Below, one piece after another: positions 3,778-48,418 of a DNA stretch of 64,000 nucleotides. The DNA lies in the NCBI GenBank assembly GCA_043815505.1, contig JBDRIV010000002.1, forward strand, positions 116,784-180,783, written 5' to 3'. The notes beneath the pieces were generated by a model. It did not search any database, was not told where the DNA came from, and saw only the letters and a list, made by a program, of their open reading frames with translations. The position numbers and the translations under genes were made by a program. Every line of letters starts with the position of its first letter. The stretch's first letter is position 1. This DNA comes from a bacterium (GTDB lineage Bacteria > Patescibacteriota > JABMPQ01 > JBDRIV01).

Positions 3778-6700
3778 TTAATTTAAAGGCGGATTTCCTT
3801 TTTTAAGACCGATGTCTCTATTTACTACGCCCTCTTTGCCACCTTCTATTTCAACTTGTTTGGGAGGGAAATAATAGCCATCTTTTTCAATAGTTAAAAT
3901 GTAACGATCAGGACCGACTAAGAATTGATATCGTCCGTCGCGACCAGTTACTTTCGTTAATAATAGTTTACCATATTGGGCGTCAAAAAGCCTTACGATA
4001 GCTCCTGACATCGCTTCGGTGGTATCAACATTAAAGACAATTCCCCAAGGTTTAACTTTGGCTCCGGTAGTTAGGCGTTTGAAAAGGAAGAATAACATAA
4101 TGTGAGCAATAAGGAAGGAGCCAGTATAATAGGATGGAGATATGGCGAAACTGAGGATACCAATTGTTGGCCCAAGGTAGGCTATAATTTTGTTGAAACC
4201 AAAGCGGACATTGCGTTTTAGTATTTTACGGTTTTCTGCAGCAATTTTAGTTTTGTCTAGCTGGGCAATTTTGGCTAAAGTGTTATTTGTAGTTTTAATA
4301 ATTTGACCTTGGTTAGCATAAAAGACAACATCTTCAGCTGGATCAAGAGGAATATTGTAATGAATATATGTTTGGGGAATGTCATTGCCATTGCTCTTTT
4401 CTTCTGCAGTAGCTGTAAAAGGATTGCCATAATATAATCTTTCAAAGACGCTATCCTTCTCAATATTGTTTAATAGTTTTGATGGAAAGACATAATTGTC
4501 TTTTTTAACGGTAATATAGTATTCCTTGTTGGGTTCAACAATGAAAGCATAACGACCCTCTTTGCCGGTAACTTGAGTTTCGATCAAGCGATTAGTGGCT
4601 TTTTCAAACAAACGTACAATGGCTAAATCGACAGGAGTTTTAGTAAGAGAATTATAAATTGTTCCCCATTTTTTACGTCTTTTAGCAGTACCGCCGAAAA
4701 GCAATTTAGGATCAGTAATAAAGCGTAGTAAGTAGGTGAAATATGGAGCAATTGATGAGGCAAAAGCCATCAAGCTATTCAATAAAGCCGAAGCGGCTAC
4801 CAAAGGAACAGCAATTTGATTATTGACTCTTTGCAGGGCTTCATTATTGACGATGTTCTTATTATAAGCATCAGAAATGGCGTTTGTTAAAGTATTAAAA
4901 ATATCTCTGGCGCCATCAATAATTCTATCAAAACCTTTCTTGTTATCTGCATCAACTTCAATTTCCACTGCTTCTTCTTCGGGAATCACGACTTCTTCCT
5001 CTTCTTGATCAGGATTTTTTGTGCCTACATTTAAACCGTATCCGAAATTAATAGCGTAGTTTTCACCGGCATATAAGGAAACGTAAATTGGTTCATTGTG
5101 TGTGGTATTACCGTAATCGTTTGGTAAACTATTTGAAGCGACATCAATTATATAAGACTGGCCACCAATATTGTTTAGGCTGAAATTTCCAGAGGTGTTG
5201 GAAGAGCTGGAGAGAATAAGATCATCAAGTGCTCTGTTTAATACACGATCACCATTGTCTTCGTACAGATTAATGGTTACATTTTGCAAACCATTTTCAG
5301 TTGAATTTTGACGACCGTCATTGTTTTTGTCGTCAAAGACAACCCCACTTATAGAGCCATTAACCACTGGATTACTGGTAGTGTTACTGCTAACTGTTCT
5401 GGCGCCGGGATCGAATGTTCCCGTGGCATTGTTGGAAATTGAAGTTAAAGCATTAGGATTAGGAACTTTGGCTCTAAACAAAACGTAGCCAGAGCTGCTG
5501 GGCGCAACACTTGATATAGAAAAGGTTGTGTCTGCTGATGATGGGCTGTAATGAGCACTGTCAGAATCTTGAATATCTGTTTGGGGAATGCTGTTTATAG
5601 AAATAGATGAGGAAATGAAGCTAAGTCCTGATGGAACTGGGTCTTGAATTCTAATATTATTTATTTCTTCTTGGCCAACATTGGTATAATCTATGCGGTA
5701 TGTTAATTCGTCACCACCAGACACTATTTTTCCGTTATCATCATAAGGTGAAGCGAGAAGAACTCCGGGGAAGTTTAAGAGAATTAAAGGCAAAATTACT
5801 CCCACAGCTAGTTTAACAAGAGTTAGGGAAAGGGCTGAAGAAATTGTCCAAACCGTGGTTTGTCTTTCTTTTTTGAAGGTTGTAAAAGAATATTGATAGG
5901 TTCCTTGTTGATCTTTATCTTTTTGTGAAGCGATAACAAAAGTTACAGCTGGTCGTTTTGCTATATTATATATTATAGAAGTAATAACACTGAAGCGATG
6001 TTTTAAAACAGCAAGAGTTGGTTGTTTATGAGCAATGGCTTTAATTACTTCTCTGGTTAGGAATACTAATATGATAGCAAGTAGTACCCACAAAAGAATA
6101 TTTATGGAAACATTTAAAATATATAAGAAGGTGGCGGCGCTGGTTTCTTGTTTGGCTAAAACATTTTCGTTATTTGATACTGCACCTAAAACACTACCGG
6201 TATTAATGCCCACGCTTTTGGAGAGTTGTAAACTTTCTTTGTAAAAGGTTATATCAATTGTGCCTTGTATTTCGTCTGCAACTTCAGCCGTAATGGTTTC
6301 GGTGCCATAAGCTTCATCGGCAACTGTATAAATTGTTTCCACAACACCATCAACAGTGGTAGCTGTTTCAACGTCAAGTGTGCCATTTCCAGAGGTGAAT
6401 AAATTCACTTCAATACCATCTTCCACCTTGTTACCATATTGATCTGTTATTTCAGCATAAACTTTGGTGGATTCGTTTTGATCAACAACAAGAGAAATTA
6501 AATCAGCGGTCATGGTTACTATAGCTGGTGGGTCAGCAACAACGGGATTGGAAACACTATTAGAACTACTAGTAGAACTACTAGAGGTATTATAACCTGT
6601 AGATCCTTGTCCAGTGTCTAAAATTTCGTCGGCAGTAAATGATGATTGATTATCAATGGTTTCTGTTTCAATTACATTATTAACAGTTGCCTGGAAGGTA

Positions 6701-9700
6701 ATAGCTTCTTCTGAGGTGTAATCAAAGGCAATGTCTCTAAGGATTGGAGTTGTGTCAGGGTTTAAAGTGGCAAGAGTAGTTTTGTACTGAATATAGCGCG
6801 TATTATCTAAATCTTCATTAATTGGTTGACCATCACTAAGATTTATCCACGAGGTTGTCCAATTATATTGCCCTTCACTAATTCTAGAGTCGGCAACTCG
6901 AGCAGCAACTTGCAAAGACGTGCCAGCTGGTACATTAGCGCTCCAATTAGAGGTGTTAAAGTTTACATATCCTCCTAAATCAATAACTGATGATTCCAAG
7001 GAAGCGGTATTATAGTATTCGTAATATCTACCACCATAATAAATCTTTTTATAATCTTCAGAGACTGGTTTTTCTTCCCAAACAGAATAAAAACCATTAT
7101 TGGGCAATATGACGACCGAAGGATTGGTTTCGTTTACTTTTTCAATCTGCAATTCGATATTATTCTCATCAATTTTGTTTTCATTGTAATCAAAAGTTTG
7201 AGCATAGGTGCTGTTGGATGAGCCATTAACTCTCTGGTCATTCCAGATAACTACAAAAAATGGATTGGTCAAGTCTTCATCATTGATAGTGACTGATGAA
7301 TAATCTTGAACGAAAGAAGTTTCATCATCATTAGCTCGTGTGGCGTATGTACTATCAACTGGACTTCCTTGTTTGGAAAATCTTCTGATCAAAATGTCTT
7401 TATCTTTGTCATTTAAACTTTTTTCAGCAGTCCAACTAAAAACCATGGATCCTACTCTATCCAAGGCAATATTAGGTTTTGACGGATTTATATAAGTAGT
7501 TCCAGGAATGTCGGCATTAACTTGGAAGCGAGAGCCGTTAAATGAACCATCGGTATTTATCTTGCGAGCATAAATGATTTGCAGTGAACCATCATTCTCT
7601 ACCCAGGTGACAACAAAATTGGTTGTACGATCAATGGCGACTGCTGGATCAGATTGATTAGCACTAATAGTTTCCTCTGTACTGTCATTTAAAACCTGGA
7701 CATTAGATCCTTTTTTATTTAAATCATAATCATATTGTTGAAAATAAATATCAGTATCATCATCGGTATATTCTTCTCTCATATCTTCCCAGACCACCAC
7801 AAAATTACCCATTGGATCCATAGCAACATTAGGATTGTATTGACTTACGTTTGCATTATCATCATTGACTCGCACAGGAGCGCTGGCTTTATTATCATTT
7901 GCCAAAACAACTTGATAATAGATGTCTTGAGAAGAATTTCTGTTATCTTCCCAAACAACCACATATTTACCATTTTCTGAAACGGCCACTTGCGGATTGG
8001 AGGCGGAAACGGCGGTATGATTAATTCTTGATATTGAACAAGCATTTTGATTAACATCTTTACGAGAAGAATAAATATTGCCACCTTCTTCATAAACTAT
8101 AATAATATTTCCTTGACTGTCAGCCGCAATATCGGGAGTAATCTGATCTACATCAACTGAATCGCAATACACAACTTCGTCATCATAAGTTTGAATTGTA
8201 TCCTCGGAGTCGTGGTCAATTTTAATTACGGTTTGAGAAGCGTCTTCAATATTTGTTCCATTACTGTATTTGGCGGGGTTAGAAAAATCAGCTTGACCAG
8301 AACTTTCCCATTCGGTTTGTTCAAACTCACCAGCCGGTAAATCTCTAATTGCATAACCACTAGCTAGTGGTAAATTATCAGAATTTACTTGGGTTGATCC
8401 AATATACAAAGAATTGGGTACGTAAGTTGTTCCGGTCGGAACTAGGTTAGTTACATTAATATTTGTTAAATCTCGAGCTTGTCCCAATTCGTTATTAGCC
8501 AAGCTTATTTTATAGGTTAATAAATCCCCTGGTCCAACTTCCATGCCATTGTCTGTATATATTCCATCTTGGTTAGCGTCAACTGACAAAGTTATGGGAT
8601 TACTGGTTCCTGGTAGGACAGTAAAGTTCTCTTCACTTTCAATTTCATATGATTCAACTTTTAATCTAATTGGACTAGCTCCTGCGTGTACGCCCGCTGG
8701 CATTTCTACTAACACTTTTGTGTTTGACCACTCCAATATTTCTAAGGCTTCTTCGAAAGCGGTGCCACGATATCTATAAGCATATCCAGTCGTGTTACCA
8801 AAATTTTCTCCACGAATCAAAACTTTATCACCGGCTGAACCTTCTGTTGGTTCAATGGAATTAAGTTTAAAAATATTATTATAATTAAATACCAAATTAT
8901 CAACTGTAGGAGTTGTGGCGGGATCAGTGCTTGATAAATAAACTCGGTATTGTAGATATTTTCTACGATCATGAATTGATAACATATCTTGTCCGGAGGT
9001 TACATCTTTCCAATTAGTCCAATTTCCTGGTCCATTGCTTTTATCATATGGAACGGCGGAGTTACCTGTTCGTACGCTCACAACAGCTTCTGTGTTGGCA
9101 GGTTGAGTTGCTTCAAAACTAACTGTTCCGAAGTTGCTAGTTCCACCAGTATAATAAACTGAGGATAATAAAACTCCACTTGGTTCGTACCCAGGTTTAA
9201 CTTTTACTCTATAAATTTCTTTATCCAGTGATATGACAGCTGGTTTTCTACTGAAAACTACTTGAGTATTATTGTTCTGATCAATGCCCACATCAGCATA
9301 TTCTTCATTACTAATTCCAGTGTTGCCAGAAATTTTAAAATCATACGGATACAATATATTGCCACCCCAAGCTACCTTGTTGCCATAAGTATAGTTGTTT
9401 CTACCCCCATCTTTCCAAATTACTAAAGCATTACCACTGGTGTCATAGGCGATGTTTGGTGATGTTTGGTCATCTCTCCCAGCGTCTATTTGATTTATTT
9501 TGAAATCTTCTCCAACATTTTCAATGGCTACATTGTCATTATCATCAGAATAAGCAAATCTAAATCGATGACCATAAATATCGACGTTTCCATTACGAGA
9601 GTCTTCCCATACAATCATTAGGTTTCTATTGTCTTTAGCGAGAGCTACTTTTGGATTCTGTTTTAAACTCGTGTTGTTGTCACTTACTCTTGAGCTGGTA

Positions 9701-10737
9701 GTTGTTCCGTTACTATTCCCAAACTGCATCACCGCACCATCAGGTTTAACAAATCGATAATAAATATCACTATTTAAACCATTGCTATAATTACGATAAT
9801 CTTCCCAAGCTGCTAAAAGATAATTATTTGAGCCAATAACTGTAACGTTTTTCTGGTCATTATCAACGGCACCTATACCGTCATTATCACTAACTAGTAC
9901 GTCAGTATCGTACAGTTTAGTTACATCATTTTTCGTAATATTATAATAAATATCCTTGTTGCCATTTCTGTCATCTTCCCAAAACATTGCAAACCAACCA
10001 TAGCCTACACCATTCATTATGTGTCCGTCAGGATTCATCTGATTATTATCATCTTGAGCGCTGGCTTGAACCGGAATATAATATTTAACTAATTCACATT
10101 CATCACCAACAAATCCTTCTCGAAAAGCATGAAAATTTACATCGTAGTTTCCGTCTTGATTATCATGCCAAGCTACAGCGGCTAGAAAATCATTTGCAAC
10201 TGGTGTGCTACCTGTTTTTGTAATTACTTCAGTTCCTCCATAGGTAACAGAGTTTGTTTTTAAGGTATCTGATGAGGCGTCTTGAGCATTTGATTCAGCA
10301 TCATAAACACGATAACCAATATTCTTTGTTGCCCCCGTTGATGACCAGGCAGTCAGATGATAATTTTGATTGGGTCCCTTTATAGCAGCGGTTGAAGGGG
10401 CGGTTTGAATTCCGGCAGAGGTTGAATTAGAGACCGCAACAGCTTTGTCAACTATTAACGAAGAAGCGCCGGTATCAAGTTGAATATTTCCCCCAGCTGT
10501 TATATTTTTGTCCCATAAGTATTTGGTCGAAGAAGAACTGGTGTAAGCAAATTGTCCTGTTCCTCCGCTCCAATTATTATTACTCCAACTAGAAGTGCTT
10601 TTTAGTTGTGTATTATCAGGATTTATTGGTATGAAAGCATTGGCAGGGCCTTGAGTTGCTAGAATAATAAAAAAGGAAACTAAAATTGTTCCTAAAAACA
10701 TCTTCTTTAAATATGAAGAAATATTATTCTTTTTCAT
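3778..10737 (-). CDS. giant (2319 aa) multi-domain surface/membrane protein
   Basis: N-terminal signal peptide. About seven tandem WxD.RNG..DIYY beta-propeller-like repeats. IPT/TIG-like, DUF11-like, SdrD-B-like (VFDDKNNDGRQN) and two carboxypeptidase-regulatory-like (VTG.DGRY.F....Y) modules. Hydrophobic TM segments both mid-protein and at the C-terminus. Confidence 0.8.
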   Translation of the reverse strand: MKKNNISSYLKKMFLGTILVSFFIILATQGPANAFIPINPDNTQLKSTSSWSNNNWSGGTGQFAYTSSSSTKYLWDKNITAGGNIQLDTGASSLIVDKAVAVSNSTSAGIQTAPSTAAIKGPNQNYHLTAWSSTGATKNIGYRVYDAESNAQDASSDTLKTNSVTYGGTEVITKTGSTPVANDFLAAVAWHDNQDGNYDVNFHAFREGFVGDECELVKYYIPVQASAQDDNNQMNPDGHIMNGVGYGWFAMFWEDDRNGNKDIYYNITKNDVTKLYDTDVLVSDNDGIGAVDNDQKNVTVIGSNNYLLAAWEDYRNYSNGLNSDIYYRFVKPDGAVMQFGNSNGTTTSSRVSDNNTSLKQNPKVALAKDNRNLMIVWEDSRNGNVDIYGHRFRFAYSDDNDNVAIENVGEDFKINQIDAGRDDQTSPNIAYDTSGNALVIWKDGGRNNYTYGNKVAWGGNILYPYDFKISGNTGISNEEYADVGIDQNNNTQVVFSRKPAVISLDKEIYRVKVKPGYEPSGVLLSSVYYTGGTSNFGTVSFEATQPANTEAVVSVRTGNSAVPYDKSNGPGNWTNWKDVTSGQDMLSIHDRRKYLQYRVYLSSTDPATTPTVDNLVFNYNNIFKLNSIEPTEGSAGDKVLIRGENFGNTTGYAYRYRGTAFEEALEILEWSNTKVLVEMPAGVHAGASPIRLKVESYEIESEENFTVLPGTSNPITLSVDANQDGIYTDNGMEVGPGDLLTYKISLANNELGQARDLTNINVTNLVPTGTTYVPNSLYIGSTQVNSDNLPLASGYAIRDLPAGEFEQTEWESSGQADFSNPAKYSNGTNIEDASQTVIKIDHDSEDTIQTYDDEVVYCDSVDVDQITPDIAADSQGNIIIVYEEGGNIYSSRKDVNQNACSISRINHTAVSASNPQVAVSENGKYVVVWEDNRNSSQDIYYQVVLANDNKASAPVRVNDDNANVSQYNPNVAMDPMGNFVVVWEDMREEYTDDDTDIYFQQYDYDLNKKGSNVQVLNDSTEETISANQSDPAVAIDRTTNFVVTWVENDGSLQIIYARKINTDGSFNGSRFQVNADIPGTTYINPSKPNIALDRVGSMVFSWTAEKSLNDKDKDILIRRFSKQGSPVDSTYATRANDDETSFVQDYSSVTINDEDLTNPFFVVIWNDQRVNGSSNSTYAQTFDYNENKIDENNIELQIEKVNETNPSVVILPNNGFYSVWEEKPVSEDYKKIYYGGRYYEYYNTASLESSVIDLGGYVNFNTSNWSANVPAGTSLQVAARVADSRISEGQYNWTTSWINLSDGQPINEDLDNTRYIQYKTTLATLNPDTTPILRDIAFDYTSEEAITFQATVNNVIETETIDNQSSFTADEILDTGQGSTGYNTSSSSTSSSNSVSNPVVADPPAIVTMTADLISLVVDQNESTKVYAEITDQYGNKVEDGIEVNLFTSGNGTLDVETATTVDGVVETIYTVADEAYGTETITAEVADEIQGTIDITFYKESLQLSKSVGINTGSVLGAVSNNENVLAKQETSAATFLYILNVSINILLWVLLAIILVFLTREVIKAIAHKQPTLAVLKHRFSVITSIIYNIAKRPAVTFVIASQKDKDQQGTYQYSFTTFKKERQTTVWTISSALSLTLVKLAVGVILPLILLNFPGVLLASPYDDNGKIVSGGDELTYRIDYTNVGQEEINNIRIQDPVPSGLSFISSSISINSIPQTDIQDSDSAHYSPSSADTTFSISSVAPSSSGYVLFRAKVPNPNALTSISNNATGTFDPGARTVSSNTTSNPVVNGSISGVVFDDKNNDGRQNSTENGLQNVTINLYEDNGDRVLNRALDDLILSSSSNTSGNFSLNNIGGQSYIIDVASNSLPNDYGNTTHNEPIYVSLYAGENYAINFGYGLNVGTKNPDQEEEEVVIPEEEAVEIEVDADNKKGFDRIIDGARDIFNTLTNAISDAYNKNIVNNEALQRVNNQIAVPLVAASALLNSLMAFASSIAPYFTYLLRFITDPKLLFGGTAKRRKKWGTIYNSLTKTPVDLAIVRLFEKATNRLIETQVTGKEGRYAFIVEPNKEYYITVKKDNYVFPSKLLNNIEKDSVFERLYYGNPFTATAEEKSNGNDIPQTYIHYNIPLDPAEDVVFYANQGQIIKTTNNTLAKIAQLDKTKIAAENRKILKRNVRFGFNKIIAYLGPTIGILSFAISPSYYTGSFLIAHIMLFFLFKRLTTGAKVKPWGIVFNVDTTEAMSGAIVRLFDAQYGKLLLTKVTGRDGRYQFLVGPDRYILTIEKDGYYFPPKQVEIEGGKEGVVNRDIGLKKGNPPLN

Positions 10738-11894: not shown

Positions 11895-13331
11895 GTGATA
11901 GAATTAAATTATATGGAACAAGCAGTAAACAATCTCTTGAAATTGAGTCTTTTTGTACTAGGAACAACAGCCTGGTTTTCACGCAGGCATATTTTTAATC
12001 TTGAAGATAATTTAGTAAATGGAAGATTTGTTGAATGGCTTAATGTCGCTTTATATTATGCTGATATACTAATAATAGTCATCGTCATATTGTATTTATT
12101 TAAGACACTATTCGAGCACAATAAGGTAGTTTGGCAAAATGCTATAATCTGGTCAGCTATAATTCTAATCTTATATATATGCTACCAGAATTATAATAGC
12201 GACCATAATAACATATATAGTAGTACAAAGATAATATTCTATATAATCTTCCTTTTTACTTTAATAAATGTTTCACGTGAAACAAAAAATAGGAAGGCAA
12301 TTATTTGGGGCATAATTTTTGGTGCTTTATTACAATCAATAATTGGAATTTTACAATTTGCTAACCAGTCTTCAATGAATCTTTGGATAATTGGTGAGCA
12401 AGCATTATCAACTGAAATACAAAATGTTGCAGAGATAGGAATTGATGGAATATACTATTTACGATCTTATGGGACACTTCTACATCCAAATGTATTAGGT
12501 GGATTATTGGTAGTATCAATCATATACTTGCTAACATGTTTTATGAAAGATAATGTTTCACGTGAAACAAATTTGAAAGATAATGTTTCACGTGAAACAA
12601 TGTGGAATAAAATAATGTTTCACGTGAAACAAAATAAATCAATTTTGATACTAATTTACGGAATTCTTTTTAGTTCACTTATATTTACCTTTTCGAGATC
12701 AGCGTGGTTAGCATTGCTATTAACAACAGCTATTTATACCTTTACTGTTGCAATAAATAGAAAAATGTTTCACGTGAAACATTTGATATATGTTGCGGTA
12801 ATATCTTTTATATTATTAATATTACTAAACAATTTTGTTTTCACTCGACTGGAACAAAATATTAACATTACAGAAAATGAAAGCGTAAGAGTAAATGATA
12901 TTCAAAAATTTAGTGATGGATTTAAGAATAATGTTTGGTTCGGTACCGGATTTGGAAATTACATAGAAAAACTAAGCTCTAATAATCCAGAGATGGAATG
13001 GTGGAAGCTTCAACCAATTCACAACTCATATTTGCTTATTATAGTTGAAATGGGAATAATTGGTTCTATAATAGTATTCGGACTTCTAATATCAATATTT
13101 CTTATAACGTTAATTGTTTCACGTGAAACAATTAGTAATAAAAATGTTTCACGTGAAACATATACAAGAAATATTCTAAATTTATTACCCTTACTAGCAT
13201 TATTAGTAATAATGATTTTTGATCATTATCCGTGGTCATTAGATCAGGGTAATATCTTATTATTTATTGTGATAGCCTTATCAATTACCAGAAATTACAA
13301 GGAACTTGACAATAAGCTTAATAATATGTAA
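11895..13331 (+). CDS. O-antigen ligase/polymerase (Wzy_C-like) family membrane protein interrupted in-frame by seven palindromic repeats
   Basis: Multi-TM protein with an FSRSAWLALLLT motif and a WFGTGFGNY motif. Contains seven copies of TGTTTCACGTGAAACA, encoding NVSRET or MFHVK(H/Q). Confidence 0.7.
   Translation: MIELNYMEQAVNNLLKLSLFVLGTTAWFSRRHIFNLEDNLVNGRFVEWLNVALYYADILIIVIVILYLFKTLFEHNKVVWQNAIIWSAIILILYICYQNYNSDHNNIYSSTKIIFYIIFLFTLINVSRETKNRKAIIWGIIFGALLQSIIGILQFANQSSMNLWIIGEQALSTEIQNVAEIGIDGIYYLRSYGTLLHPNVLGGLLVVSIIYLLTCFMKDNVSRETNLKDNVSRETMWNKIMFHVKQNKSILILIYGILFSSLIFTFSRSAWLALLLTTAIYTFTVAINRKMFHVKHLIYVAVISFILLILLNNFVFTRLEQNINITENESVRVNDIQKFSDGFKNNVWFGTGFGNYIEKLSSNNPEMEWWKLQPIHNSYLLIIVEMGIIGSIIVFGLLISIFLITLIVSRETISNKNVSRETYTRNILNLLPLLALLVIMIFDHYPWSLDQGNILLFIVIALSITRNYKELDNKLNNM
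12269..13160. repeat. Seven dispersed copies of the perfect 16-bp palindrome TGTTTCACGTGAAACA (12269, 12554, 12584, 12616, 12766, 13115, 13145), including a 30-bp tandem duplication at 12545-12604
   Basis: Read directly in the sequence. A degenerate eighth copy, TTTTCACGTGAAACA, lies at 19340-19354. Confidence 0.9.
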
Positions 13332-13375
13332 AGTCCATTAATGACATACCACGTCATTTTTGTTATTATGTCAAT

Positions 13376-16069
13376 ATGATTATAGAAATCCCCTACAATT
13401 TAAAGAAGGAAGATGTCCTTAAAAAGTTAGGATCAAGTTTTAATAGTGGTTTAAAAAATAATCAGGTCGTTGAAAGAAGAAAAAAATATAGTTCTAATAT
13501 GTTGCCTGAAGAAAAAAAGAAATCAAAACTGATTCTATTTTTGGGCCAGTTCAATAATATTTTTACGTACTTTCTTTTTGGAGCGGCCCTAGTTTCATTT
13601 TGGTTGGGTGAAAAACTGGACGTAGCTGTTATATTGGCAGTAGTATTTATAAATGTAATAATAGGATATTTTCAGGAAAACAAAGCACGAGAAACAATTA
13701 AGGAATTAAAAAAGATAATTAGAATAAAAGCCAAAGTTGTAAGAGAAGCAATTGTATCGGAAATTGATGCCGAAGATTTAGTACCAGGAGATTTAATTTT
13801 ATTAGATGCGGGAGACAAGGTGCCGGCTGACATAAGATTGATAAAAACAAATAACTTTCAGACCAAGGAACACGTGTTAACAGGAGAATCAAATCCAATT
13901 AACAAAAATGAAGAAGAGGTTTTAGAAAAGCAAACTCCTCTCGGTGACAGAATTAACATGGCTTATACAGGAACGGTAGTTACAAGTGGATCGGCTAAAG
14001 CAGTCGTTGTTGCAACCGGAAAATATACCGAGTTTGGAAAAATAGCTACGCTTGTAAAAGAGGCTGAGGAAGAACAAACGCCACTTAAAAGAAGAATTTC
14101 TAAAATGTCATATTGGTTAGGAGGAATTGCCCTTATTGCTTGTCTAATAATATTTCTAATTGGAGTTGTAATGGGTAGATCGGTGGGAGAGATGTTTATT
14201 TTTGCTGTTACCATTGCGGTGTCGGCAATACCTGAGGGCATGGTGGTAATGGTTACAATTATATTAACCATTGGCATGAGAAGAATTTTGAAAAGGCAGG
14301 CAGTGGTTAGAGAATTAATTGCCGCCGAAACTTTGGGAAGTACCACTGTAATTTGTACAGACAAAACAGGCACCATTACAACCGGAGAAATGGAAGCTGA
14401 AATTATTGACACGATAACTGAAGAATATAAGGTCACAGACCTATCCCCTTTAGTTAGCCAAGATGTAGCTCTGACCAATGTGATGTTAAGTTCTGTTTTA
14501 TGCAATGACGCAAAAATAGAAAATCCTAAAGAGGAACCTACGAGCTGGAATTTAATTGGTGAAGCCACAGACGTAGCGTTAATAGAAATGGCCAGTCGCG
14601 CCGGCGTTTATAAAAACGAATTGGAAAATAAATATTTGCGTCGTGACATTGTGCCCTTTGATTCGGATGTGAAATACATGGCCACTCTAAATTGCTCAGA
14701 AGAAAATAAGGAGTGTAAAATATTTGTAAAAGGAAGTGTTGAGGTTTTGCTAAAATATTCTCACTATGTTTATCAGGATGATCGCCGCCAGATTTTAGAT
14801 GGAAAAACAGCTGATAAAATTATAAAAGAAGTTAACGAGCTGAGTGGAAAAGGATATCGCGTTATTGGGACGGCTTATAAAACAGTGTCCACTGACGATA
14901 ATATTAACTTAGAAAAAGAATCTAGACGTAATTTAATTTTCACAGGTTTTATTGGAATCAGAGATCCGATTCGTCCGCAAATTAAAAATGTTATAAAGAA
15001 AACCCTAAGTGCTGGTATTAAAATTAAAATGATAACAGGTGATCACAAACTAACCGCTCTCTCTATTGCTGAAGATATTGGTTTAGATGTAAAGTCAGAC
15101 GAAGTGATTACCGGTGAAGAATTTGAAACTTTGTCTACAACTGATTTGGAAAGTTTGGTACCGCGAGCAAAAATATTTGCTCGCGTTACTCCCAAACATA
15201 AATTACAAATTGTAGATATTTTACAGCGCGCAGGAGAAATTGTGGCCATGACAGGTGATGGAGTTAATGACACGCCGGCTTTAAAAGCGGCTGACATTGG
15301 TGTGGCGATGGGTTCTGGTTCCGAGGTGGCCAAAGAAACTTCCGATATAATTTTGCTTGATAATAATTTTAAAACCATTTCCGCCGCCGTCGAGGAAGGT
15401 AGATTAATTTTTGATAATTTAAAAAAGAATATTTTATATTTGTTGTCCGATTCATTAAGTGAAATTATTTTAGTTTTGAGTACTTTGCTTTTAGCATTGC
15501 CGGTACCAATTCTACCGGCTCAAATTCTGTGGATAAATTTAGTTGCTGATGGAGCACCTGGAGTGGCCTTGGCCTTTGAGCCAGCCGATAAAGATATTAT
15601 GAATAGAAAACCACAAGAGAAGGATTCTCCAATAGTTACCTTTGAAATGAAGCTTTTAATTATAGTTATTGGCTTAATTACGGGATTTGGTGTATTGGGA
15701 ATATTTTGGTGGTTGCTCAAAGATGGCTATAGCATTGAACATGCGCGAACAGTGGCATTTACGGCTCTTAGTATAGACTCACTTATATATGTATTTAGTT
15801 GTCGAACTTTAAGATATTCCATATTTCAGAAGAATATGTTCTCTAATAAGTATTTAATTTGGACAGTTCTTGGTGGTATTGGCTTACAATTTTTGGCCGT
15901 TTATCTTCCTCAGTTTCAGGCTGTTTTTCATACCGTGCCATTAAATTTATTGGATTGGGGCATAATAGCTGCTGTAGCGGTTGTAGTAATTCTCTCGATT
16001 GAAATCATCAAACACTATTTTATTATAAAAAAAACAGAGTCTTTACCAGCGACTTCTGATGCGGTATAA
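13376..16069 (+). CDS. P-type cation-transporting ATPase (type II, Ca2+/Mg2+-like)
   Basis: Phosphorylation motif CTDKTGTITT, TGES motif, hinge motif MTGDGVNDTPALKAADIGVAMG, about 10 TM segments. Confidence 0.9.
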   Translation: MIIEIPYNLKKEDVLKKLGSSFNSGLKNNQVVERRKKYSSNMLPEEKKKSKLILFLGQFNNIFTYFLFGAALVSFWLGEKLDVAVILAVVFINVIIGYFQENKARETIKELKKIIRIKAKVVREAIVSEIDAEDLVPGDLILLDAGDKVPADIRLIKTNNFQTKEHVLTGESNPINKNEEEVLEKQTPLGDRINMAYTGTVVTSGSAKAVVVATGKYTEFGKIATLVKEAEEEQTPLKRRISKMSYWLGGIALIACLIIFLIGVVMGRSVGEMFIFAVTIAVSAIPEGMVVMVTIILTIGMRRILKRQAVVRELIAAETLGSTTVICTDKTGTITTGEMEAEIIDTITEEYKVTDLSPLVSQDVALTNVMLSSVLCNDAKIENPKEEPTSWNLIGEATDVALIEMASRAGVYKNELENKYLRRDIVPFDSDVKYMATLNCSEENKECKIFVKGSVEVLLKYSHYVYQDDRRQILDGKTADKIIKEVNELSGKGYRVIGTAYKTVSTDDNINLEKESRRNLIFTGFIGIRDPIRPQIKNVIKKTLSAGIKIKMITGDHKLTALSIAEDIGLDVKSDEVITGEEFETLSTTDLESLVPRAKIFARVTPKHKLQIVDILQRAGEIVAMTGDGVNDTPALKAADIGVAMGSGSEVAKETSDIILLDNNFKTISAAVEEGRLIFDNLKKNILYLLSDSLSEIILVLSTLLLALPVPILPAQILWINLVADGAPGVALAFEPADKDIMNRKPQEKDSPIVTFEMKLLIIVIGLITGFGVLGIFWWLLKDGYSIEHARTVAFTALSIDSLIYVFSCRTLRYSIFQKNMFSNKYLIWTVLGGIGLQFLAVYLPQFQAVFHTVPLNLLDWGIIAAVAVVVILSIEIIKHYFIIKKTESLPATSDAV

Positions 16070-16091
16070 TTCAGACAGATGAATTAACATT

Positions 16092-16589
16092 ATGAATCAA
16101 ACGATTTTAATTTATATCGCTTTAGGTGTAGGAGTAATAGTTTTACTATGGCAAGTTTATTTGACCATAGTTTTATTTAGGTACCAAGGGCAAAGAAAAA
16201 ATTTAATAGCTGGAGTTAAGGGTGAAGGAGTTGAAAAATATTTGGAAAAACAAGCGAAAGATATTAGAAAAGCTCAAGCCGGAGTGGGAGATTTACAGGA
16301 TGTGGGTAAGCGACTTAGTCGTGTGGTTAGTCGTAGTGTTACCAAGGTGGGAGTAATTAGATTCAATCCTTTTGGTGATACTGGCGGTAATCAAAGTTTT
16401 GCTGTGGCTTTTTTGGATTCTAAGAATAATGGTGTGGTGTTGTCCAGTTTATATGGACGTGATGGCACTAGAATTTATTGTAAAGAAATTCGCGGTGGAA
16501 TTTCTGAACATCCTTTATCTGAAGAAGAACAAAATTGCATTATGCAAGCTCAACAAAATTCAACTAACAAAGAAGAATCTAATTCTTAA
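16092..16589 (+). CDS. DUF4446 family protein
   Basis: N-terminal TM segment; IRFNPFGDTGGNQSFAVAFLD...GVVLSSLYGRDGTRIY resembles DUF4446. Confidence 0.5.
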   Translation: MNQTILIYIALGVGVIVLLWQVYLTIVLFRYQGQRKNLIAGVKGEGVEKYLEKQAKDIRKAQAGVGDLQDVGKRLSRVVSRSVTKVGVIRFNPFGDTGGNQSFAVAFLDSKNNGVVLSSLYGRDGTRIYCKEIRGGISEHPLSEEEQNCIMQAQQNSTNKEESNS

Positions 16590-16600
16590 ATAACATTATT

Positions 16601-17047
16601 ATGGCTATGTTCAATAATCAAAACGAAGAAGATCAAAACACAACCAAAACAGAAGAAAGCAACGAAACAGTTGTTGGTAATTCTGTAAAATTAGAAGGAG
16701 AATTTGCTAGCCAAGGCAATATAACTATTCATGGTGAAGTAGTAGGAAAAGTCGTTACCGAACGAGAAGTTCATATTGGTGACACAGCAGTTGTTAAGGC
16801 TGATGTTGAAGCGGAAAATATTTTTGTGTCAGGAAAAGTAAATGGTAATTTGCATGCTCGCGATCGTTTAGAAATAAAAAACACCGGTAAGGTAAAAGGT
16901 GATATTCAAGCCAAAAACTTAACCATTTCTTCAGGTGCAGTCTTTTCTGGTAACTGTTCAATGGAAAAAGAAGTTGAGAAAAAAGAAGTAAAAGAAGCAA
17001 AAGTTACAGACAAAGTTAAGGCTAAAGAAAATCAGCCGGTTGCTTAA
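16601..17047 (+). CDS. bactofilin family cytoskeletal protein
   Basis: Repetitive beta-helical bactofilin core (G.V.G.V....V.I...A.V.G.I.A). Confidence 0.65.
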   Translation: MAMFNNQNEEDQNTTKTEESNETVVGNSVKLEGEFASQGNITIHGEVVGKVVTEREVHIGDTAVVKADVEAENIFVSGKVNGNLHARDRLEIKNTGKVKGDIQAKNLTISSGAVFSGNCSMEKEVEKKEVKEAKVTDKVKAKENQPVA

Positions 17048-17083
17048 TAAACCGTTTTAAAATATTAAATATTTAAAACGGCA

Positions 17084-17944
17084 ATGTATTTTTTCATCTA
17101 CGAAAATATTGGCAACAAAAGAAAGTTTCGTAAAGAAGCTGATAGAATCCAATTACAGCTGGCTAATTTTGGAATTGCTGATGAACATACCGAAAGCACT
17201 CCCTTACGTCCTATTAACGAAATCGTTAAAGATGCGCTGAAACGCAATATGAGTAATATTATTATGGTTGGGAGTGATAAGGCGGCGCATATAACAATAA
17301 ATGAGATGGCAAAAAGTAAAACGCCGTCTTGTTTTGGTTTTATCCCCATGGATACCGATAGTAACATTGCCAAAGTACTTGGTATGTCCCATGGTCATAA
17401 AGCTTGTCAGGATATTGCTAAAAGAAAAATTAAAGATGTGGATCTAGGAAAAGTGGGACAAGAGTATTTTTTAACTACCCTAAGGCTGAATGCGGGTGAA
17501 GAAGAAACAGAAATTAGGGGAATGTTTAACAGAAAAGCAATGCCGTTGCCAAAATCTTGTACTATTAAAGTCCCTTTCAAAAAACAAGCGATTATGACCA
17601 TTCCACTGCGCGAAGCCATGGTGGTCAATATTTCGCCTTATCACAAAGCAGGAGAATTAAAAATTGCTTCCGAGCAATCAGCAAAAATAAATCCTACTGA
17701 CGGTCGTCTAGATTTCTTTTTCTTGCCTTCTGGGGAAAATGATCCCGATGTTTTTAAAGAATTTCGTCAAGGAAGTTTTACGAGTACAAATATTTCCTAT
17801 TTTAATCGGGAAACTTTAAATATAAATACCAACGACAAAGTTCAGCTAGTAGCAGACGGTACAAAAATAAAACAGTTTCCAATTAATATAGAAACTGTTA
17901 CAGGTGCCTTACGTGTAATCGTTGGCTCTAATCGGATGTTTTAA
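17084..17944 (+). CDS. diacylglycerol-kinase catalytic-domain (YegS/BmrU-like) lipid kinase, degenerate motifs
   Basis: IIMVGSDKAAH (a degenerate GGDGT motif) and GFIPMDTDSNIAKVLG (PlGTgN-like). Confidence 0.45.
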   Translation: MYFFIYENIGNKRKFRKEADRIQLQLANFGIADEHTESTPLRPINEIVKDALKRNMSNIIMVGSDKAAHITINEMAKSKTPSCFGFIPMDTDSNIAKVLGMSHGHKACQDIAKRKIKDVDLGKVGQEYFLTTLRLNAGEEETEIRGMFNRKAMPLPKSCTIKVPFKKQAIMTIPLREAMVVNISPYHKAGELKIASEQSAKINPTDGRLDFFFLPSGENDPDVFKEFRQGSFTSTNISYFNRETLNINTNDKVQLVADGTKIKQFPINIETVTGALRVIVGSNRMF

Positions 17945-18307
17945 ACTCGTTCTTTTTATTTTTTGGAGGAGAAAAATGACTTCTTTATCATCCTTTTTCA
18001 TGTTAAAAAGACCTAAATGTGCAGCTTTTTTAAGCAGAAAACCACGAAAATGTGAAATACTACCTGGGTCAAAACGATCATCACTAGATAACCCACAGTT
18101 CACAGGGATGTTTACAGATGAGCCCCCCCTTAATTTTCTTTGTCGAGATATTATGTGGATACACAGTGAATTGATCTCGGATCCAAGAAAATATTTTGAG
18201 GATATAGGTAAGGGTATGAAAGAAAGTGACTTTTGTTTAGATTCATGTAGATCTTTAAGGCACAGTACTGGTGAAGATGGTTATTAGTTCTATTCAAAAA
18301 TTATCAT

Positions 18308-19156
18308 TTAGGCCTGCAAACGCGGGTCTTTTTTTATCCTAATATATTTCCTGGTCAAAGATTCCCATTCTGGCCAAGTGAGAGTTTCTGCTCGGCGCGT
18401 TTTATCAATTGCGCTAATTTTTAATAGTTGGATAATTTTATCTTTTTCCCATTTTAATCCCGACTCCAAATTGTTGTGAATCTGTTTACGTTTAGCAGCA
18501 AAAGCAATTTTAGCTAGATGGAAAAAATCTGCAATTAAAGTTTCTGCAATTAGTGGTGTTTGACGCAGTTTTAGTAAAATTACAGCTGAATCAACTTTAG
18601 GGGCGGGATAAAATGCTTCACTTGGCACAACAGAAATTATTTTTGTCTCAGCGTAAAGTTGAACTGAGAGTGTTAGCAAACTAACATTAGGAGCTTCAGC
18701 AGTAAGTCGGTCGGCAATTTCCTTTTGGACTAAAAACGCCATTAATTCCGGTCGGGTTTTATTTTCTAAAAAGAATTTGAAAAGATGCGAAGTTAAATAG
18801 TAAGGAATATTGGCGACAACTTTATATTTATTATTTTCAAAATATTTGGCTAAATCAAGCCGTAAAATATCTGCTTTAAGAATCTCAATATTTTCTTGTT
18901 GATATTTATTTTGCAAATAGGAAATTAATTTATCATCAACTTCACAAGCTAAAACTTTTCTTGCTTGCTCAACTAGTTTTTCGGTTAAAGCGCCCAGCCC
19001 AGGGCCAATTTCTAAAACCTTATCTTTTTTGGAAAGGGAAGCTGCTCCAACTAAATCGCTAACAACTTTATCGGAAATTAAAAAATGCTGACCTCGTTTT
19101 TTTAGAGGCGCAGTATCAAGTGATTTTATAATTTGTTTCAATTTCTCTTTATTCAT
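18308..19156 (-). CDS. rsmA: 16S rRNA (adenine1518/1519-N6)-dimethyltransferase
   Basis: GQHFL..., the EIGPGLGALT SAM motif, and NIPY. Confidence 0.85.
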   Translation of the reverse strand: MNKEKLKQIIKSLDTAPLKKRGQHFLISDKVVSDLVGAASLSKKDKVLEIGPGLGALTEKLVEQARKVLACEVDDKLISYLQNKYQQENIEILKADILRLDLAKYFENNKYKVVANIPYYLTSHLFKFFLENKTRPELMAFLVQKEIADRLTAEAPNVSLLTLSVQLYAETKIISVVPSEAFYPAPKVDSAVILLKLRQTPLIAETLIADFFHLAKIAFAAKRKQIHNNLESGLKWEKDKIIQLLKISAIDKTRRAETLTWPEWESLTRKYIRIKKDPRLQA

Positions 19157-19164
19157 AAAATATT

Positions 19165-20211
19165 TTATAAAACTCTTTGGTACATATAGTCTGCCAACTC
19201 AACATAGAAGTCTTGGCTGTTTTTGGTAAAGTTTGATTTCTTAATAATCTCTCTGGCTTCACCTGTAATTTGGGCAATACTTGAAGTCATCTGTTTATCA
19301 ATATTTTTTGCCTTAGCCAAAGTTGTTACTTTGACCATTTTTTCACGTGAAACATTAGCTTGGCCAAAATCACTCATATCCTTTTTATCCAGTTCTGAAA
19401 ATAAAACTTTAACCAAGGGCGTTAATTTGCCTTCTTTAAAATCAGAGCCTACTGGTTTACCAAGAGTTTTTTCGTCACCAAAAAATCCTAACAGATCATC
19501 TTGCATTTGAAATGCTTCACCAATGAGAGTGGCATAACTGGCCAGGATTTCTAGGTTTGTTTTTTCGGTACGTGCCAAAATTGCTCCCGAAATTATGGGG
19601 CTAAGAGTTGTATAGCCAGTAGTTTTAAGTTTCACAATTGTTTCAGTGGGAACATTAGTTAAATTCTTTTCGTTTGAATAATGAATATCAATAAATTGAC
19701 CGATGCCGGTATCAAACAAACGATTTTGAATATAAGTTAAAGCCGGAACTTTTATTTCGTCTTCAAAATCACAATTTAAAATTACTGACATGGCCAGATG
19801 AGAAAGAAGGTCACCGGCCAGTAAGGCTACTTTGTAACCGTATTGCTTAGCTCTTTTTTCCTCGTAAACCACGTGAACTGTTTTTTCGCCGCGCCTTATT
19901 TCATCTAAATCAATTATATCGTCGTGAATTAAAAGGGCGGCGTGAGCCAGTTCTAAACCGGCGGCAAAATCTAAAATAGCTTTTTTATTTTCACCACCAA
20001 AAAATTCATAAGTGGCAATTAAAAGAGAGGCCCGAAAGCGTTTGCCGCCTCTGCTTACCAAATTGCAAGCTTCAGCAAACAAATCTTTCACATTTTCGTC
20101 ATAAGAATCATAGGTTTTTGAAGCTTCATTTATAATGCTGTTCAAATGGGAATTAACCAAATTCTGGTGTTTGGTTAAGGTTGTTTGAAAAATGTTTTTG
20201 CTACTCATCAT
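19165..20211 (-). CDS. polyprenyl (isoprenyl) diphosphate synthase
   Basis: First aspartate-rich motif LIHDDIIDLDEIRRG and second motif FQMQDDLLGFFGD. Start set at MMSSKN to remove the overlap with the divergent gene. Confidence 0.8.
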   Translation of the reverse strand: MMSSKNIFQTTLTKHQNLVNSHLNSIINEASKTYDSYDENVKDLFAEACNLVSRGGKRFRASLLIATYEFFGGENKKAILDFAAGLELAHAALLIHDDIIDLDEIRRGEKTVHVVYEEKRAKQYGYKVALLAGDLLSHLAMSVILNCDFEDEIKVPALTYIQNRLFDTGIGQFIDIHYSNEKNLTNVPTETIVKLKTTGYTTLSPIISGAILARTEKTNLEILASYATLIGEAFQMQDDLLGFFGDEKTLGKPVGSDFKEGKLTPLVKVLFSELDKKDMSDFGQANVSREKMVKVTTLAKAKNIDKQMTSSIAQITGEAREIIKKSNFTKNSQDFYVELADYMYQRVL

Positions 20212-20232
20212 AAATTCTAGTAGAATAAGATT

Positions 20233-21810
20233 ATGGTTAAGGAATTCATACAAAAACTGGAAAACAAAAATTACAATTTTGCCTCGTGGTTAGCACTAAT
20301 TGCTAGTGTTATTATTGTACGCGTGATTCTGGAAAGTGTTTCGTCCAACGGCTATAATCCCTACAATCTAGTAAACATACTTCATCTTACCATTTTCTTT
20401 CTCACGTTGCTATTGTCTTTAATTTTAGTAGCGGCGTTTTTTACAAAAGAGAGAATAGAACAGATTTCGAAGTTTTTTGCCTTTGGTTTCTTTTTGTTGT
20501 GGTCGGCGCCAATTGTTGATTTGTTGCTTTCTTGGGGCAAGGGTTACCAAATGGCCTATATGTTTGTAGGCATAAATGATTTAATTTCCAACTTATTTTC
20601 CTTTTTTGGACCAATTTTAAGTCCCGGAATTACTTTTGGTATGCGCGTGCAAATTCTGCTCGCTATGCTTGCTCTTACTTGGTATGTCTGGCACAAAACT
20701 AGATCTTTATGGAAAGCGGTTTCCACTTTTATAGTTTCCTATTTAGTGGCCTTTTTTTACGGAGCTTTGCCTTCGCTATTTGTTTATGTTGCTCATCCGG
20801 CGCATTTAGATTCTGGGCGGGAAGAAATAATTGATACCTTGTTTACTCCTAAATCAATTTTTGCCATTGAATTTTTTGATACCGAAAAACTTTTTGATGT
20901 GCACATGGCTTTAGTTCTTTTGCCGATTTTAATTATCCAATTACTGATTTGGTACGGTTTAATAAGTAAAGAAAAATTGTGGGCCTTCTTGAAGAACTTG
21001 CGTTTGTTAAGATTATTGTTTCAGATTGTGGCTCTGGGCTCAGGAATTTATTTAGGTTCCATTGTTTTAAATCAGCCTCTAGATCTTTCGGCCGCCGGAA
21101 TTTTGATGGTGCTGGCCTTGGCATTAGCAGTAATTTCTGCTTGGTCATTTTCTGTAATTGTAAATGACTATTATGATACTGCTATTGATGCCGTTACAAA
21201 TAAAAACCGACCCCTAATTAAAAAAACTATCAGCCAAGAAGAATTTATTTATTTAGGAGTCGTTTCTTTTATAATTTCAGTCCTAGCCGCTGGCATTGTT
21301 GGTTATGTATTCTTCTTGCTGATAATGGGCATAAACGCGCTTTCCTATGTTTATTCAGCTCTACCATTGCGTTTAAGGCGCTTTCCTTTTCTCACTTCCT
21401 TTGTGATAGCCTTGGCCACTCTTTTTATTGCCATGTCCGGCTTTGCTCTATTTACTGGTGACAATAATCTGTCCTCGTTTCCTAAAAGCATAATTGGTCT
21501 TATTCTAATTATTTTCACTCTGGTTTTAAATGCCAAAGATATAAAAGATCGTGAAGGTGATAAGGCTAATAACGTTATTACTATACCGACACTTTTAGGA
21601 GAGCGCGCTGGCAAATTGGTAATAGGAACTTTAATTTTTGCCTCCTTTACTCTCTTTGCTATAATCTTGCAGAATTTTATGCTGTTTGTTGGTTCGCTGG
21701 GATTTGGAATAGTTGGTTTCTTTCTGGTCTATGATAAAAGGGCTAAAGAAAAATATGTTTTTATTCTTTATGCCCTCTATATGATTTTAGTTTTGCTGAC
21801 TACTTTTTAA
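20233..21810 (+). CDS. membrane protein with a C-terminal UbiA-family prenyltransferase domain
   Basis: NDYYDTAIDAVTNKNRP (NDxxDxxxD) and KDIKDREGDKANNVITIP motifs in the C-terminal half. The N-terminal about 290 aa form an extra multi-TM domain. Confidence 0.65.
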   Translation: MVKEFIQKLENKNYNFASWLALIASVIIVRVILESVSSNGYNPYNLVNILHLTIFFLTLLLSLILVAAFFTKERIEQISKFFAFGFFLLWSAPIVDLLLSWGKGYQMAYMFVGINDLISNLFSFFGPILSPGITFGMRVQILLAMLALTWYVWHKTRSLWKAVSTFIVSYLVAFFYGALPSLFVYVAHPAHLDSGREEIIDTLFTPKSIFAIEFFDTEKLFDVHMALVLLPILIIQLLIWYGLISKEKLWAFLKNLRLLRLLFQIVALGSGIYLGSIVLNQPLDLSAAGILMVLALALAVISAWSFSVIVNDYYDTAIDAVTNKNRPLIKKTISQEEFIYLGVVSFIISVLAAGIVGYVFFLLIMGINALSYVYSALPLRLRRFPFLTSFVIALATLFIAMSGFALFTGDNNLSSFPKSIIGLILIIFTLVLNAKDIKDREGDKANNVITIPTLLGERAGKLVIGTLIFASFTLFAIILQNFMLFVGSLGFGIVGFFLVYDKRAKEKYVFILYALYMILVLLTTF

Positions 21811-34492: not shown

Positions 34493-34559
34493 AGAATTTA
34501 ATTAGTGTATTTATTATAGTCAGAAAGCGAAAATTATACAACATTTAGTAACAAAAAAT

Positions 34560-34760
34560 CCCTGCAACGGGAATGTGTTACAGGGCGCTGATGCGCCCAC
34601 ATAGAAGAAATGGCGTCAGCGCCCTGTGATGGGCTTAAGCTGACTTATTAACCGCTAAAGAATTAGCAGTTCGTAAGATCATCTGTTTAAACCCCAAATA
34701 GGCGCTAAATGGTTTACGACTTAACCTTAGCTTTCCCTGGCCGCCTCAATGGCAGTCACA
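34560..34760. other. GC-rich structured noncoding segment (unassigned RNA or attenuator) in a 670-bp intergenic region
   Basis: Strong hairpin CAGGGCGCTGATGCGCC / GGCGTCAGCGCCCTG (34581-34626). No ORF on either strand; GC well above local average. Confidence 0.3.
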
Positions 34761-35164
34761 TTATTTTGATGTTATGCCTTTTGTTTTTGTTTTTGATGAA
34801 AGTGTCGTTTTCTTTCTAGAAGAGCAGCTTAGGGGATCTAAGCTCAAATGAAGCGCAGATCGCCTAAGCCGGTTTCTTCCAGTGATGAAAGAGTGGCGAG
34901 GGTTTAATATTTTGATATTTGTTTATCAATGAAATGAGCGGTATTTTTCCACTTCTTTATAAACCTTATCATAAAAAAGAGAAAAAGTCAATCATTATAC
35001 CCTTATTCAAGGTAAAAGGTAGACATGGAGAAGATTTTGGCTTAAACACTAGTAAAATGAAAAAACCCATCATAAGGTTTTTGAACAATAGAATTGTTTA
35101 TCCACATGGCAAATTTTATCTTTTGCAACGGATGTCTAACTTATCCACAGAAATAAGTGAAAAG

Positions 35165-46462: not shown

Positions 46463-47404
46463 ATGGCTACGCAAAATTCATTAAAAGGGCTTATCCAAGA
46501 CTTCTTGGATTATTTAGAAGGGGAGAAAAACTGCTCTCCTTTAACAACCAGAAATTATCATTCTTATTTGACCGATTTTGCTAACTCTATGAAAGTTTCT
46601 CAGCCAGCCGAGATAACAGATAGTAAGTTGCGAGATTATCGAGTTGTTTTAAATAGAAGAAAAAATTCTAAGGGAGATTATTTAAAACATTCTACCAAGA
46701 ATTATTATTTAATTGCTCTTCGTTCCTTTCTGAAGTATTTAGCCAAGCGCGATATAAAAAGTCTAATGCCTGAAAAAATTGAGTTGGCCAAAGTGGCTGG
46801 ACGTGAGATAGATTTTTTGGAGCCAGAAGAACTCGCTCGTTTGCTTGATGCACCAGATGCAGGAACAATGCGTGGATTGCGTGACAAAGCAATTTTAGAA
46901 CTGCTGTTTTCCTCTGGTTTGCGTGTCAGTGAATTATGTTCACTTGATACTAAGAAAATAAATTTGAAAAAAGATGAATTTTCTATTCGCGGAAAAGGAG
47001 ATAAGTTGCGGGTCGTTTTTCTTTCTAACACCGCTAAGTACTGGTTGAAAAAATATAATGATGCCAGACAAGATGGTTTATCTCCACTATTCATAAGCTA
47101 TCCAAAAGGGAAAGCTAGTCTCGATGTTTCCGATCCAGAAAAAAGAAGATTAACCCCAAGGAGTATTCAAAGGTTAGTTCATAAATATGCTCTTATTGCT
47201 GGAATTACAACCAAGGTTACACCCCATGTTTTGCGTCATAGTTATGCCACAGATTTACTAATGGGTGGTGCTGATATTCGTTCGGTGCAGGCCATGCTTG
47301 GGCACGCTTCTATTACCACTACGCAAATGTATACGCACATTACTGACAAAAGATTACGCGAAGTTTATAAGAAGTTTCACGGGAAAACTAGAAGAGGCGA
47401 GTAG
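46463..47404 (+). CDS. tyrosine site-specific recombinase, XerC/XerD family
   Basis: N-terminal core-binding domain. Catalytic R (LRDKAILELLFSSGLRVSEL), the HVLRHSYATDLL box and LGHASITTTQMYTH with the Tyr nucleophile. Confidence 0.8.
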   Translation: MATQNSLKGLIQDFLDYLEGEKNCSPLTTRNYHSYLTDFANSMKVSQPAEITDSKLRDYRVVLNRRKNSKGDYLKHSTKNYYLIALRSFLKYLAKRDIKSLMPEKIELAKVAGREIDFLEPEELARLLDAPDAGTMRGLRDKAILELLFSSGLRVSELCSLDTKKINLKKDEFSIRGKGDKLRVVFLSNTAKYWLKKYNDARQDGLSPLFISYPKGKASLDVSDPEKRRLTPRSIQRLVHKYALIAGITTKVTPHVLRHSYATDLLMGGADIRSVQAMLGHASITTTQMYTHITDKRLREVYKKFHGKTRRGE

Positions 47405-47539
47405 TCTTTGTTCAGAGTTTGTCGAGGGGTTGTTAATTAGATGCTATAATGTTATAGTAACGCGGAAATTATTTGGCATATGGCATATAGCAAATGGCAA
47501 ATAGTACATAATCGTTTACAATTCAAACGAGGAGAGCAT

Positions 47540-47568
47540 CCAGCCCCAGTTTGAAAAACTGGAGCTGG
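47540..47568. repeat. hairpin-only mini copy of the inverted-repeat element
   Basis: CCAGCCCCAGTTT-GAAAA-ACTGGAGCTGG. Confidence 0.6.
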
Positions 47569-47570
47569 AG

Positions 47571-47760: not shown

Positions 47761-47770
47761 ATTGAACTTC
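47749..47770. promoter_or_regulatory. perfect 22-bp palindrome GAAGTTCAATTAATTGAACTTC, 25 nt upstream of tRNA-Arg
   Basis: Read directly; fully self-complementary. Confidence 0.8.
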
Positions 47771-48411: not shown

Positions 48412-48418
48412 ACGATAT

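Follow-up and report, generated by a model that had tools for sequence, protein, structure and literature searches.

What does it mean that a single protein-coding gene carries the same perfect 16-bp palindrome seven times, in two reading frames, with its coding sequence left intact? Within the 64-kb window (the whole stretch of DNA that was analysed), an exact scan recovered seven copies of TGTTTCACGTGAAACA, spanning 892 bp and every one of them inside the 478-aa open reading frame (ORF) at 11895-13331 (+), against an expectation of 0.00 from dinucleotide-preserving shuffles; the first-pass annotation of the locus had reported seven identical palindromes in one intact ORF, and was right to do so. 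When up to three mismatches were allowed, one further site appeared in the 64 kb, TTTTTCACGTGAAACA at 19339-19354, confirming a degenerate eighth copy that had been placed in a polyprenyl synthase gene, where it encodes ANVSREK on the minus strand. All eight sites fall within 7.1 kb (12269-19354), with zero in the other ~57 kb of the window at the same threshold. The features are listed below, where the palindromes are already called parS sites for reasons given in the next section; being palindromic, they carry no strand.

11895-13331, plus strand: host gene, predicted intact WaaL/Wzy_C-family polytopic membrane protein, 478 aa (Pfam Wzy_C E = 7e-16; AlphaFold model)
12269-12284, no strand: parS site 1, exact; read NVSRET; between model helices 106-126 and 130-157
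12544-12633, plus strand: 30-bp tandem repeat, source of parS sites 2-4 (Tandem Repeats Finder: 2.9 copies, 88% matches)
12554-12569, no strand: parS site 2, exact; read NVSRET; tandem repeat unit 1; lowest-confidence loop of the model, residues 220-232
12584-12599, no strand: parS site 3, exact; read NVSRET; tandem repeat unit 2
12616-12631, no strand: parS site 4, exact; read MFHVKQ; tandem repeat unit 3, 32 bp from site 3
12766-12781, no strand: parS site 5, exact; read MFHVKH; alignment slot shared with a parS-like site of homologous locus L177
13115-13130, no strand: parS site 6, exact; read IVSRET; alignment slot (column 976) shared with homologous loci L146, L149 and L171
13145-13160, no strand: parS site 7, exact; read NVSRET
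19165-20253, minus strand: polyprenyl synthase gene (Pfam annotation), host of the degenerate eighth site
19339-19354, no strand: parS-like site, 15/16, outermost base differing; minus-strand reading NVSREK

As had been claimed, the ORF stays open with identical DNA read in two frames, but the proposed split of four NVSRET to three MFHVK copies was miscounted: five copies read (N/I)VSRET (four NVSRET and one IVSRET) and two read MFHVK(Q/H). The three frames of the palindrome are x-V-S-R-E-T, x-F-H-V-K-(H/Q) and C-F-T-stop (TGT TTC ACG TGA). Because the third contains TGA, an intragenic copy can read only VSRET or FHVK, a convenient rule of thumb that holds identically on the opposite strand since the site is palindromic. 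A tandem duplication of a 30-bp unit, originally placed at 12545-12604, is likewise real but slightly larger, extending over 12544-12633. Its third unit lies 32 bp, not 30 bp, from the second, which accounts for the change of frame at site 4. Across the repeat the 16-bp cores are unchanged and the flanks have diverged. The seven-site array arose at least partly by tandem duplication of this 30-bp unit.

Identity of the palindrome and its genomic setting

A suggestion that the palindrome binds a protein proved correct in a specific sense. Judged by its sequence, TGTTTCACGTGAAACA is the canonical chromosomal parS, the centromere-like site bound by ParB: it fits the chromosomal consensus TGTTNCACGTGAAACA at all 16 positions, the string itself is given for Hyphomonas (the Hyphomonas neptunium site is identical), and the Streptomyces, Caulobacter and Burkholderia sites are near-identical to it (PMC7022226). 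The 27 papers found in a literature search to contain the exact string TGTTTCACGTGAAACA were all on ParB, parS or Noc, a ParB paralogue. When one genome was scanned for each species, the same 16-mer was recovered in Streptomyces, Microbacterium, Clostridia, Alphaproteobacteria, Saccharibacteria, Prevotella and others, often as clusters with a spacing of some tens to hundreds of bases. By our estimate, chance alone would yield roughly 140 copies of a 16-mer in 596 Gb, a level at which a single copy is unremarkable but which cannot explain the clusters. Among 120 parS-bearing blocks from many phyla (≤8 kb each), 44 encode the ParB GERRxRA motif and 47 the ParA Walker A motif, and genomes with parS next to parAB range from 28% to 72% GC. 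At one Actinomyces locus (L093), two exact parS sites lie inside the parB gene itself and a third about 100 bp outside it. Two hallmarks of parS are also found within the 64-kb window, namely few, clustered copies and a DNA sequence conserved irrespective of frame (two frames, invariant codons and a flanking T). The idea of a sequence-specific insertion or hypervariation mechanism found no support, the 16-mer being a chromosomal parS that clusters near parA and parB in many phyla and is not dispersed in the window.

We therefore consider it very probable that the seven palindromes are ParB loading sites which jointly form the centromere of this chromosome, or its main part. ParB-CTP clamp loading, sliding, ParA-driven segregation and SMC recruitment are established in other bacteria, and by analogy with the ParABS systems studied there we infer ParB binding and the downstream segregation steps in this organism. 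One ParB dimer would recognise each 16-bp palindrome; after binding CTP, ParB would form a closed clamp that slides along to adjacent DNA, such that seven sites in 892 bp, together with the weaker site 6 kb away, could nucleate one large partition complex. This complex would be segregated by ParA and would load SMC. For this uncultivated organism, whose genome is very small, the array probably marks the position of the centromere, and would help to place both the origin and the segregation machinery.

Pfam annotation of 41 ORFs in the window identified ordinary chromosomal genes: RNase HII and two tRNAs lie upstream of the host gene; a P-type ATPase, DUF4446, a diacylglycerol-kinase-like gene, KsgA, polyprenyl synthase and UbiA lie downstream; and PcrA/UvrD, ribonucleotide reductase, PNPase and others follow further along. 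Neither Pfam nor motif scans nor a ParB HMM, trained on 40 ParB ORFs taken from other phyla, detected parA, parB, smc or dnaA in the 64-kb window. A ParB-like gene was likewise absent within 10 kb at all 83 related loci (L121-L203), whereas about a third of the parS-bearing blocks in other phyla have one. Such absences would also be expected if the palindrome served some purpose besides segregation and its binding protein were not canonical ParB but a transcription factor or a diverged relative of ParB/Noc, and ParB relatives with changed roles, such as Noc, do exist. We regard this reading as improbable, however, as the match of 16/16 is to parS and not to the different Noc site, and conservation of this kind across phyla is known only for ParB-parS.

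A chromosomal parS would be expected in the origin-proximal ~20% of the chromosome. The cumulative GC-skew minimum and a minus-to-plus switch in gene strand both fall at 11-12 kb, adjoining the array. As the skew largely follows gene orientation and DnaA boxes are not enriched in the window (26 versus 20 expected), closeness of the array to an origin is suggestive only. Two related loci that are parS-negative, L190 (4735-11158) and L139 (4020-11143), have the gene order dnaN, dnaA, rnpA, yidC, jag and Wzy_C homologue, which is that of a classic origin region, with no parS-like sites within 10 kb at either locus. In many bacteria, the dnaN-to-jag stretch leads on to parA and parB.

Several other features of the window were recorded in passing. 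Two perfect DnaA boxes (TTATCCACA) at 35098 and 35141 lie 43 bp apart in one intergenic gap (35098-35149) with no dnaA gene nearby, and the pair was rejected as too little to call an origin. The DUF4446 gene (16092-16589), of a family often found beside parB in Firmicutes, lies 3 kb downstream of the array. About 350 nt of non-coding sequence with raised GC content (34545-34900, minus strand), flanked by a small minus-strand ORF and DUF3352 genes, folds far better than shuffles (z = -7.9) and ends in a terminal hairpin followed by a U-run; an Rfam search of it returned no match even at E = 1. It is a candidate structured RNA, either not yet described or strongly diverged. The region 46463-53134 holds a XerC/D-like tyrosine recombinase gene (46463-47404) and an HNH endonuclease ORF between tRNA-Arg and tRNA-His, followed by a higher-GC stretch (0.41-0.44) encoding a beta-helix/FG-GAP protein, and may be an integrated element. 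A 2319-aa ORF without annotation occupies 3778-10737 on the minus strand.

The host gene and its distant homologues

By its domain, its predicted polytopic fold and its conserved Arg/His motifs, the host gene is a member of the WaaL/Wzy_C family. In an alignment with 18 homologues, the protein keeps the family-invariant residues R190, Y192, G193, P198, N199, S267, R268, H376, D443 and H444. Its AlphaFold model (mean pLDDT 79.6, pTM 0.85) has the O-antigen ligase WaaL (7tpg_B) as closest solved structure, with a probability of 1.00 and a TM-score of 0.48-0.55. [quoted passage not shown] The parS-encoded peptides form helix ends or loops of the model, with residues 220-232, contributed by the tandem pair, as its least confident segment. 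Homologues without parS have shorter loops at the matching positions, making 'insertions' a fair description. Should the N-terminus be cytoplasmic, helix counting would place all seven peptides across the membrane from the conserved catalytic motifs. The parS sites would thus sit at helix ends and loops of an intact WaaL/Wzy_C-like protein where VSRET or FHVK is tolerated.

A specific link between the palindrome and a polysaccharide-ligase-like gene family had been suspected from this one gene, and it holds across distant relatives. To avoid word-search bias, we collected 80 metagenomic loci through a peptide pattern (R[AS]YG[TSA][FL]xHPN) that has no relation to parS; their homologues are only 23-34% identical. 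With up to two mismatches allowed, 54 sites lie inside 81 Wzy_C ORFs (113 kb), seven of them the window's own and 47 in the 80 retrieved loci, compared with only four in 694 kb of flanking DNA from the related loci, two of which lie 30-50 bp past a Wzy_C stop codon. At least one parS-like site was present in 20 of the 81 genes; six exact sites lie in a single Wzy_C gene at L201, and at L203 three lie within the gene with another two directly downstream. Protein alignment likewise revealed VSRET-type peptides in many homologues, several per protein. A separate search of 100 homologous proteins found parS-type peptides in 47 (window protein included), and was kept out of the statistics as a word-based search whose query shares words with its hits.

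The sites occupy recurrent alignment columns (304, 378-380, 558-599, 654, 709-744, 838 and 968-986), and the window gene has sites in five of these regions. At columns 709-716, L146, L149 and L171 read IVSRET or NVSRET and L179 and L188 read FHV or LHV, whereas at column 744 the FHVK frame is used by both the window gene and L177. Homologous positions are occupied in proteins only 25-30% identical. Orthologues with the same residues and no DNA palindrome had been named in advance as the observation that would speak against insertions; the residues do recur at homologous positions, but in distant homologues the DNA palindrome recurs as well. At column 838, some genes keep VSRET with the synonymous codons CGA, CGC or CGG, and five (L121, L128, L135, L137 and L147) carry TGTTTCATATGAAACA, in which the central CG is replaced by TA, leaving a perfect palindrome that reads VSYET. 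These synonymous and VSYET forms look like decayed sites with a lasting peptide, although TGTTTCATATGAAACA could be either a decayed site or a functional variant. As VSRET is kept at this column without the perfect palindrome, the peptide can outlast the site.

Clustering at 40% identity splits the parS-positive Wzy_C genes into at least five groups, and a UPGMA tree does not unite them in a single clade, leading us to reject a single origin of the trait. Synteny was rejected as a cause too: next after the window gene comes a P-type ATPase, and the largest parS-positive cluster lies near genes for a CCA-adding enzyme, D-Ala-D-Ala ligase and TPR-repeat proteins. Among parS-negative homologues, no alternative recurring palindromes were found.

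A CCA-adding enzyme gene lies beside, or a few kb from, parS-bearing Wzy_C genes in other loci (L202 7603-9045; L131 2288-3946), and in a Saccharibacteria locus (L027, 4146-5654, minus strand) such a gene itself has four parS-like sites in two frames.

The gene-embedded arrangement of parS is possibly conserved. A broader proposition, which we put forward tentatively and consider less likely than not, is that several deep lineages of candidate phyla radiation bacteria with small genomes house their chromosomal centromere in a WaaL/Wzy_C-like gene, kept there through divergence to 25-30% identity and changed neighbourhoods, with parAB elsewhere. If true, it would mean that a centromere and its host gene have been partners over a long time, with sites at recurrent loops, mixed frames and peptide 'fossils' upon decay, and might even point to a function, such as tethering of the origin region to the membrane by co-translational insertion of the Wzy_C-like protein. 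More generally, parS in Wzy_C genes could show how compact genomes fit essential cis-acting sites into coding sequence, and how such sites shape protein loops.

Insertion, switching and selection on the DNA

Loops that resemble insertions relative to homologues without them, and a unit duplicated in tandem, might have been left by a very small palindromic mobile element inserting in-frame, akin to Rickettsia palindromic elements or MITEs. An element of this kind, tolerated within the reading frame, had indeed been proposed for this locus, and the part concerning tolerance stands: the palindrome is accommodated in loop expansions, one set of which arose by tandem duplication. The mobile element itself we judge highly improbable. 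Its core would be just 16 bp, with no conserved flanks and no target-site duplication; the identical sequence lies beside parAB in many phyla with GC contents from 28% to 72%; the window copies are limited to one gene and one nearby site and are not dispersed; and homologous positions are occupied in proteins only 25-30% identical. Members of the Rickettsia-type or MITE class measure roughly 100 bp or more, have conserved ends and are scattered over many unrelated genes; assignment to that class was rejected, only the 16-bp core being common to the copies, with differing flanks and confinement to one gene and one neighbour.

Direct repeats at 30-32 bp spacing, whose copy number has changed in the past, could also serve phase or antigenic variation, whereby recombination between repeats or slippage would alter loop length or switch a surface-polysaccharide gene. 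This too had been suggested, and it fares poorly. The repeat units are multiples of 3 or are compensated, and the ORF stays open; from the alignment and the model, the peptides appear to lie opposite the conserved catalytic motifs; within the repeat it is the 16-bp core that is conserved and the flanks that have diverged; and the core is also conserved at single-copy positions in distant homologues. We thus attach very little probability to switching as the purpose of the array.

Conservation of a parS site should be visible in the DNA irrespective of the peptide. Based on codon usage in other window genes, the probability of VSRET being encoded as GTT TCA CGT GAA ACA is 5.9e-3 per site; it was observed at five of five. 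Neither VSRET nor FHVK occurs in the 16,240 aa of other genes in the window. The 84 homologous genes contain 35 non-identical VSRET peptides, of which 30 are encoded exactly by GTTTCACGTGAAACA, against 0.4% expected. In 34 of these 35, VSRET is preceded by T, a base that the peptide does not set. Two frames in one gene, near-invariant codons and the preceding T together show that selection acts on the palindrome as DNA and not on the encoded peptide.

The converse reading, that VSRET is a repeated functional peptide motif of the protein family and the palindrome incidental, could draw on the homologues that keep VSRET at column 838 with a palindrome-breaking synonymous Arg codon, or VS(H/Y)ET, but as a main cause it is refuted by the frame and codon data and retains next to no probability, given that one gene reads the same DNA in two frames, that homologous loops of different genes read it in different frames, and that codon choice is essentially invariant and the preceding base almost always T. 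A DNA-uptake signal or highly iterated word, another early suggestion, would be spread evenly over the genome in hundreds to thousands of copies. It was dismissed because the 16-mer is undispersed: the remaining ~57 kb of the window contain none, and 694 kb of related flanks only 4 parS-like sites.

Comparison with known systems

The array in the window resembles the chromosomal parS clusters of ParABS systems in its 16-bp palindrome, its clustered multiple copies and its presumed role in ParB loading. Reported numbers of parS sites are 21 in Streptomyces coelicolor, 22 in Myxococcus xanthus, 5 in Caulobacter and 2 in Hyphomonas (PMC7022226). In contrast to such clusters, the window array packs seven perfect copies into 892 bp of one ORF, and has no parAB within 64 kb. 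Similar in number and density of exact sites are the arrays of three Firmicutes-like loci (L018, with six copies in about 800 bp; L029; and L055, next to parA/parB); these are intergenic, with only very short ORFs across them, whereas the window array is entirely coding.

Individual parS sites in coding sequence have precedents. In Bacillus subtilis, a parS site lies inside spo0J. There, as in Pseudomonas aeruginosa and in the Actinomyces locus L093, parS is carried in coding sequence with the protein undisrupted, as it is in the window, but at one or two sites per gene, compared with seven in two frames in the window gene. For Pseudomonas aeruginosa, intragenic parS is documented (PMC4368675). 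The window differs from these examples also in that its host gene family carries sites recurrently in distant lineages.

Rickettsia palindromic elements offer the nearest parallel outside chromosome segregation, as in-frame selfish repeats in protein-coding genes where, as in the window, palindromic DNA is tolerated in-frame and adds loop peptides. They are about 100-150 bp long and dispersed over many unrelated genes, and no protein is known to bind them. The window element, unlike these, is 16 bp long, belongs to one locus and is identical to a universal protein-binding site.

Our literature searches found no report linking parS to the Wzy_C/O-antigen ligase family or to candidate phyla radiation/Patescibacteria, and none on ParB-parS function in candidate phyla radiation bacteria; parS arrays lodged time and again in one membrane-protein gene family of distant lineages appear to be undescribed. 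Set against the known systems, the type of element and its tolerance in coding DNA are familiar, and what is unusual is the presence of seven perfect sites in one ORF and their recurrent link with a single gene family.
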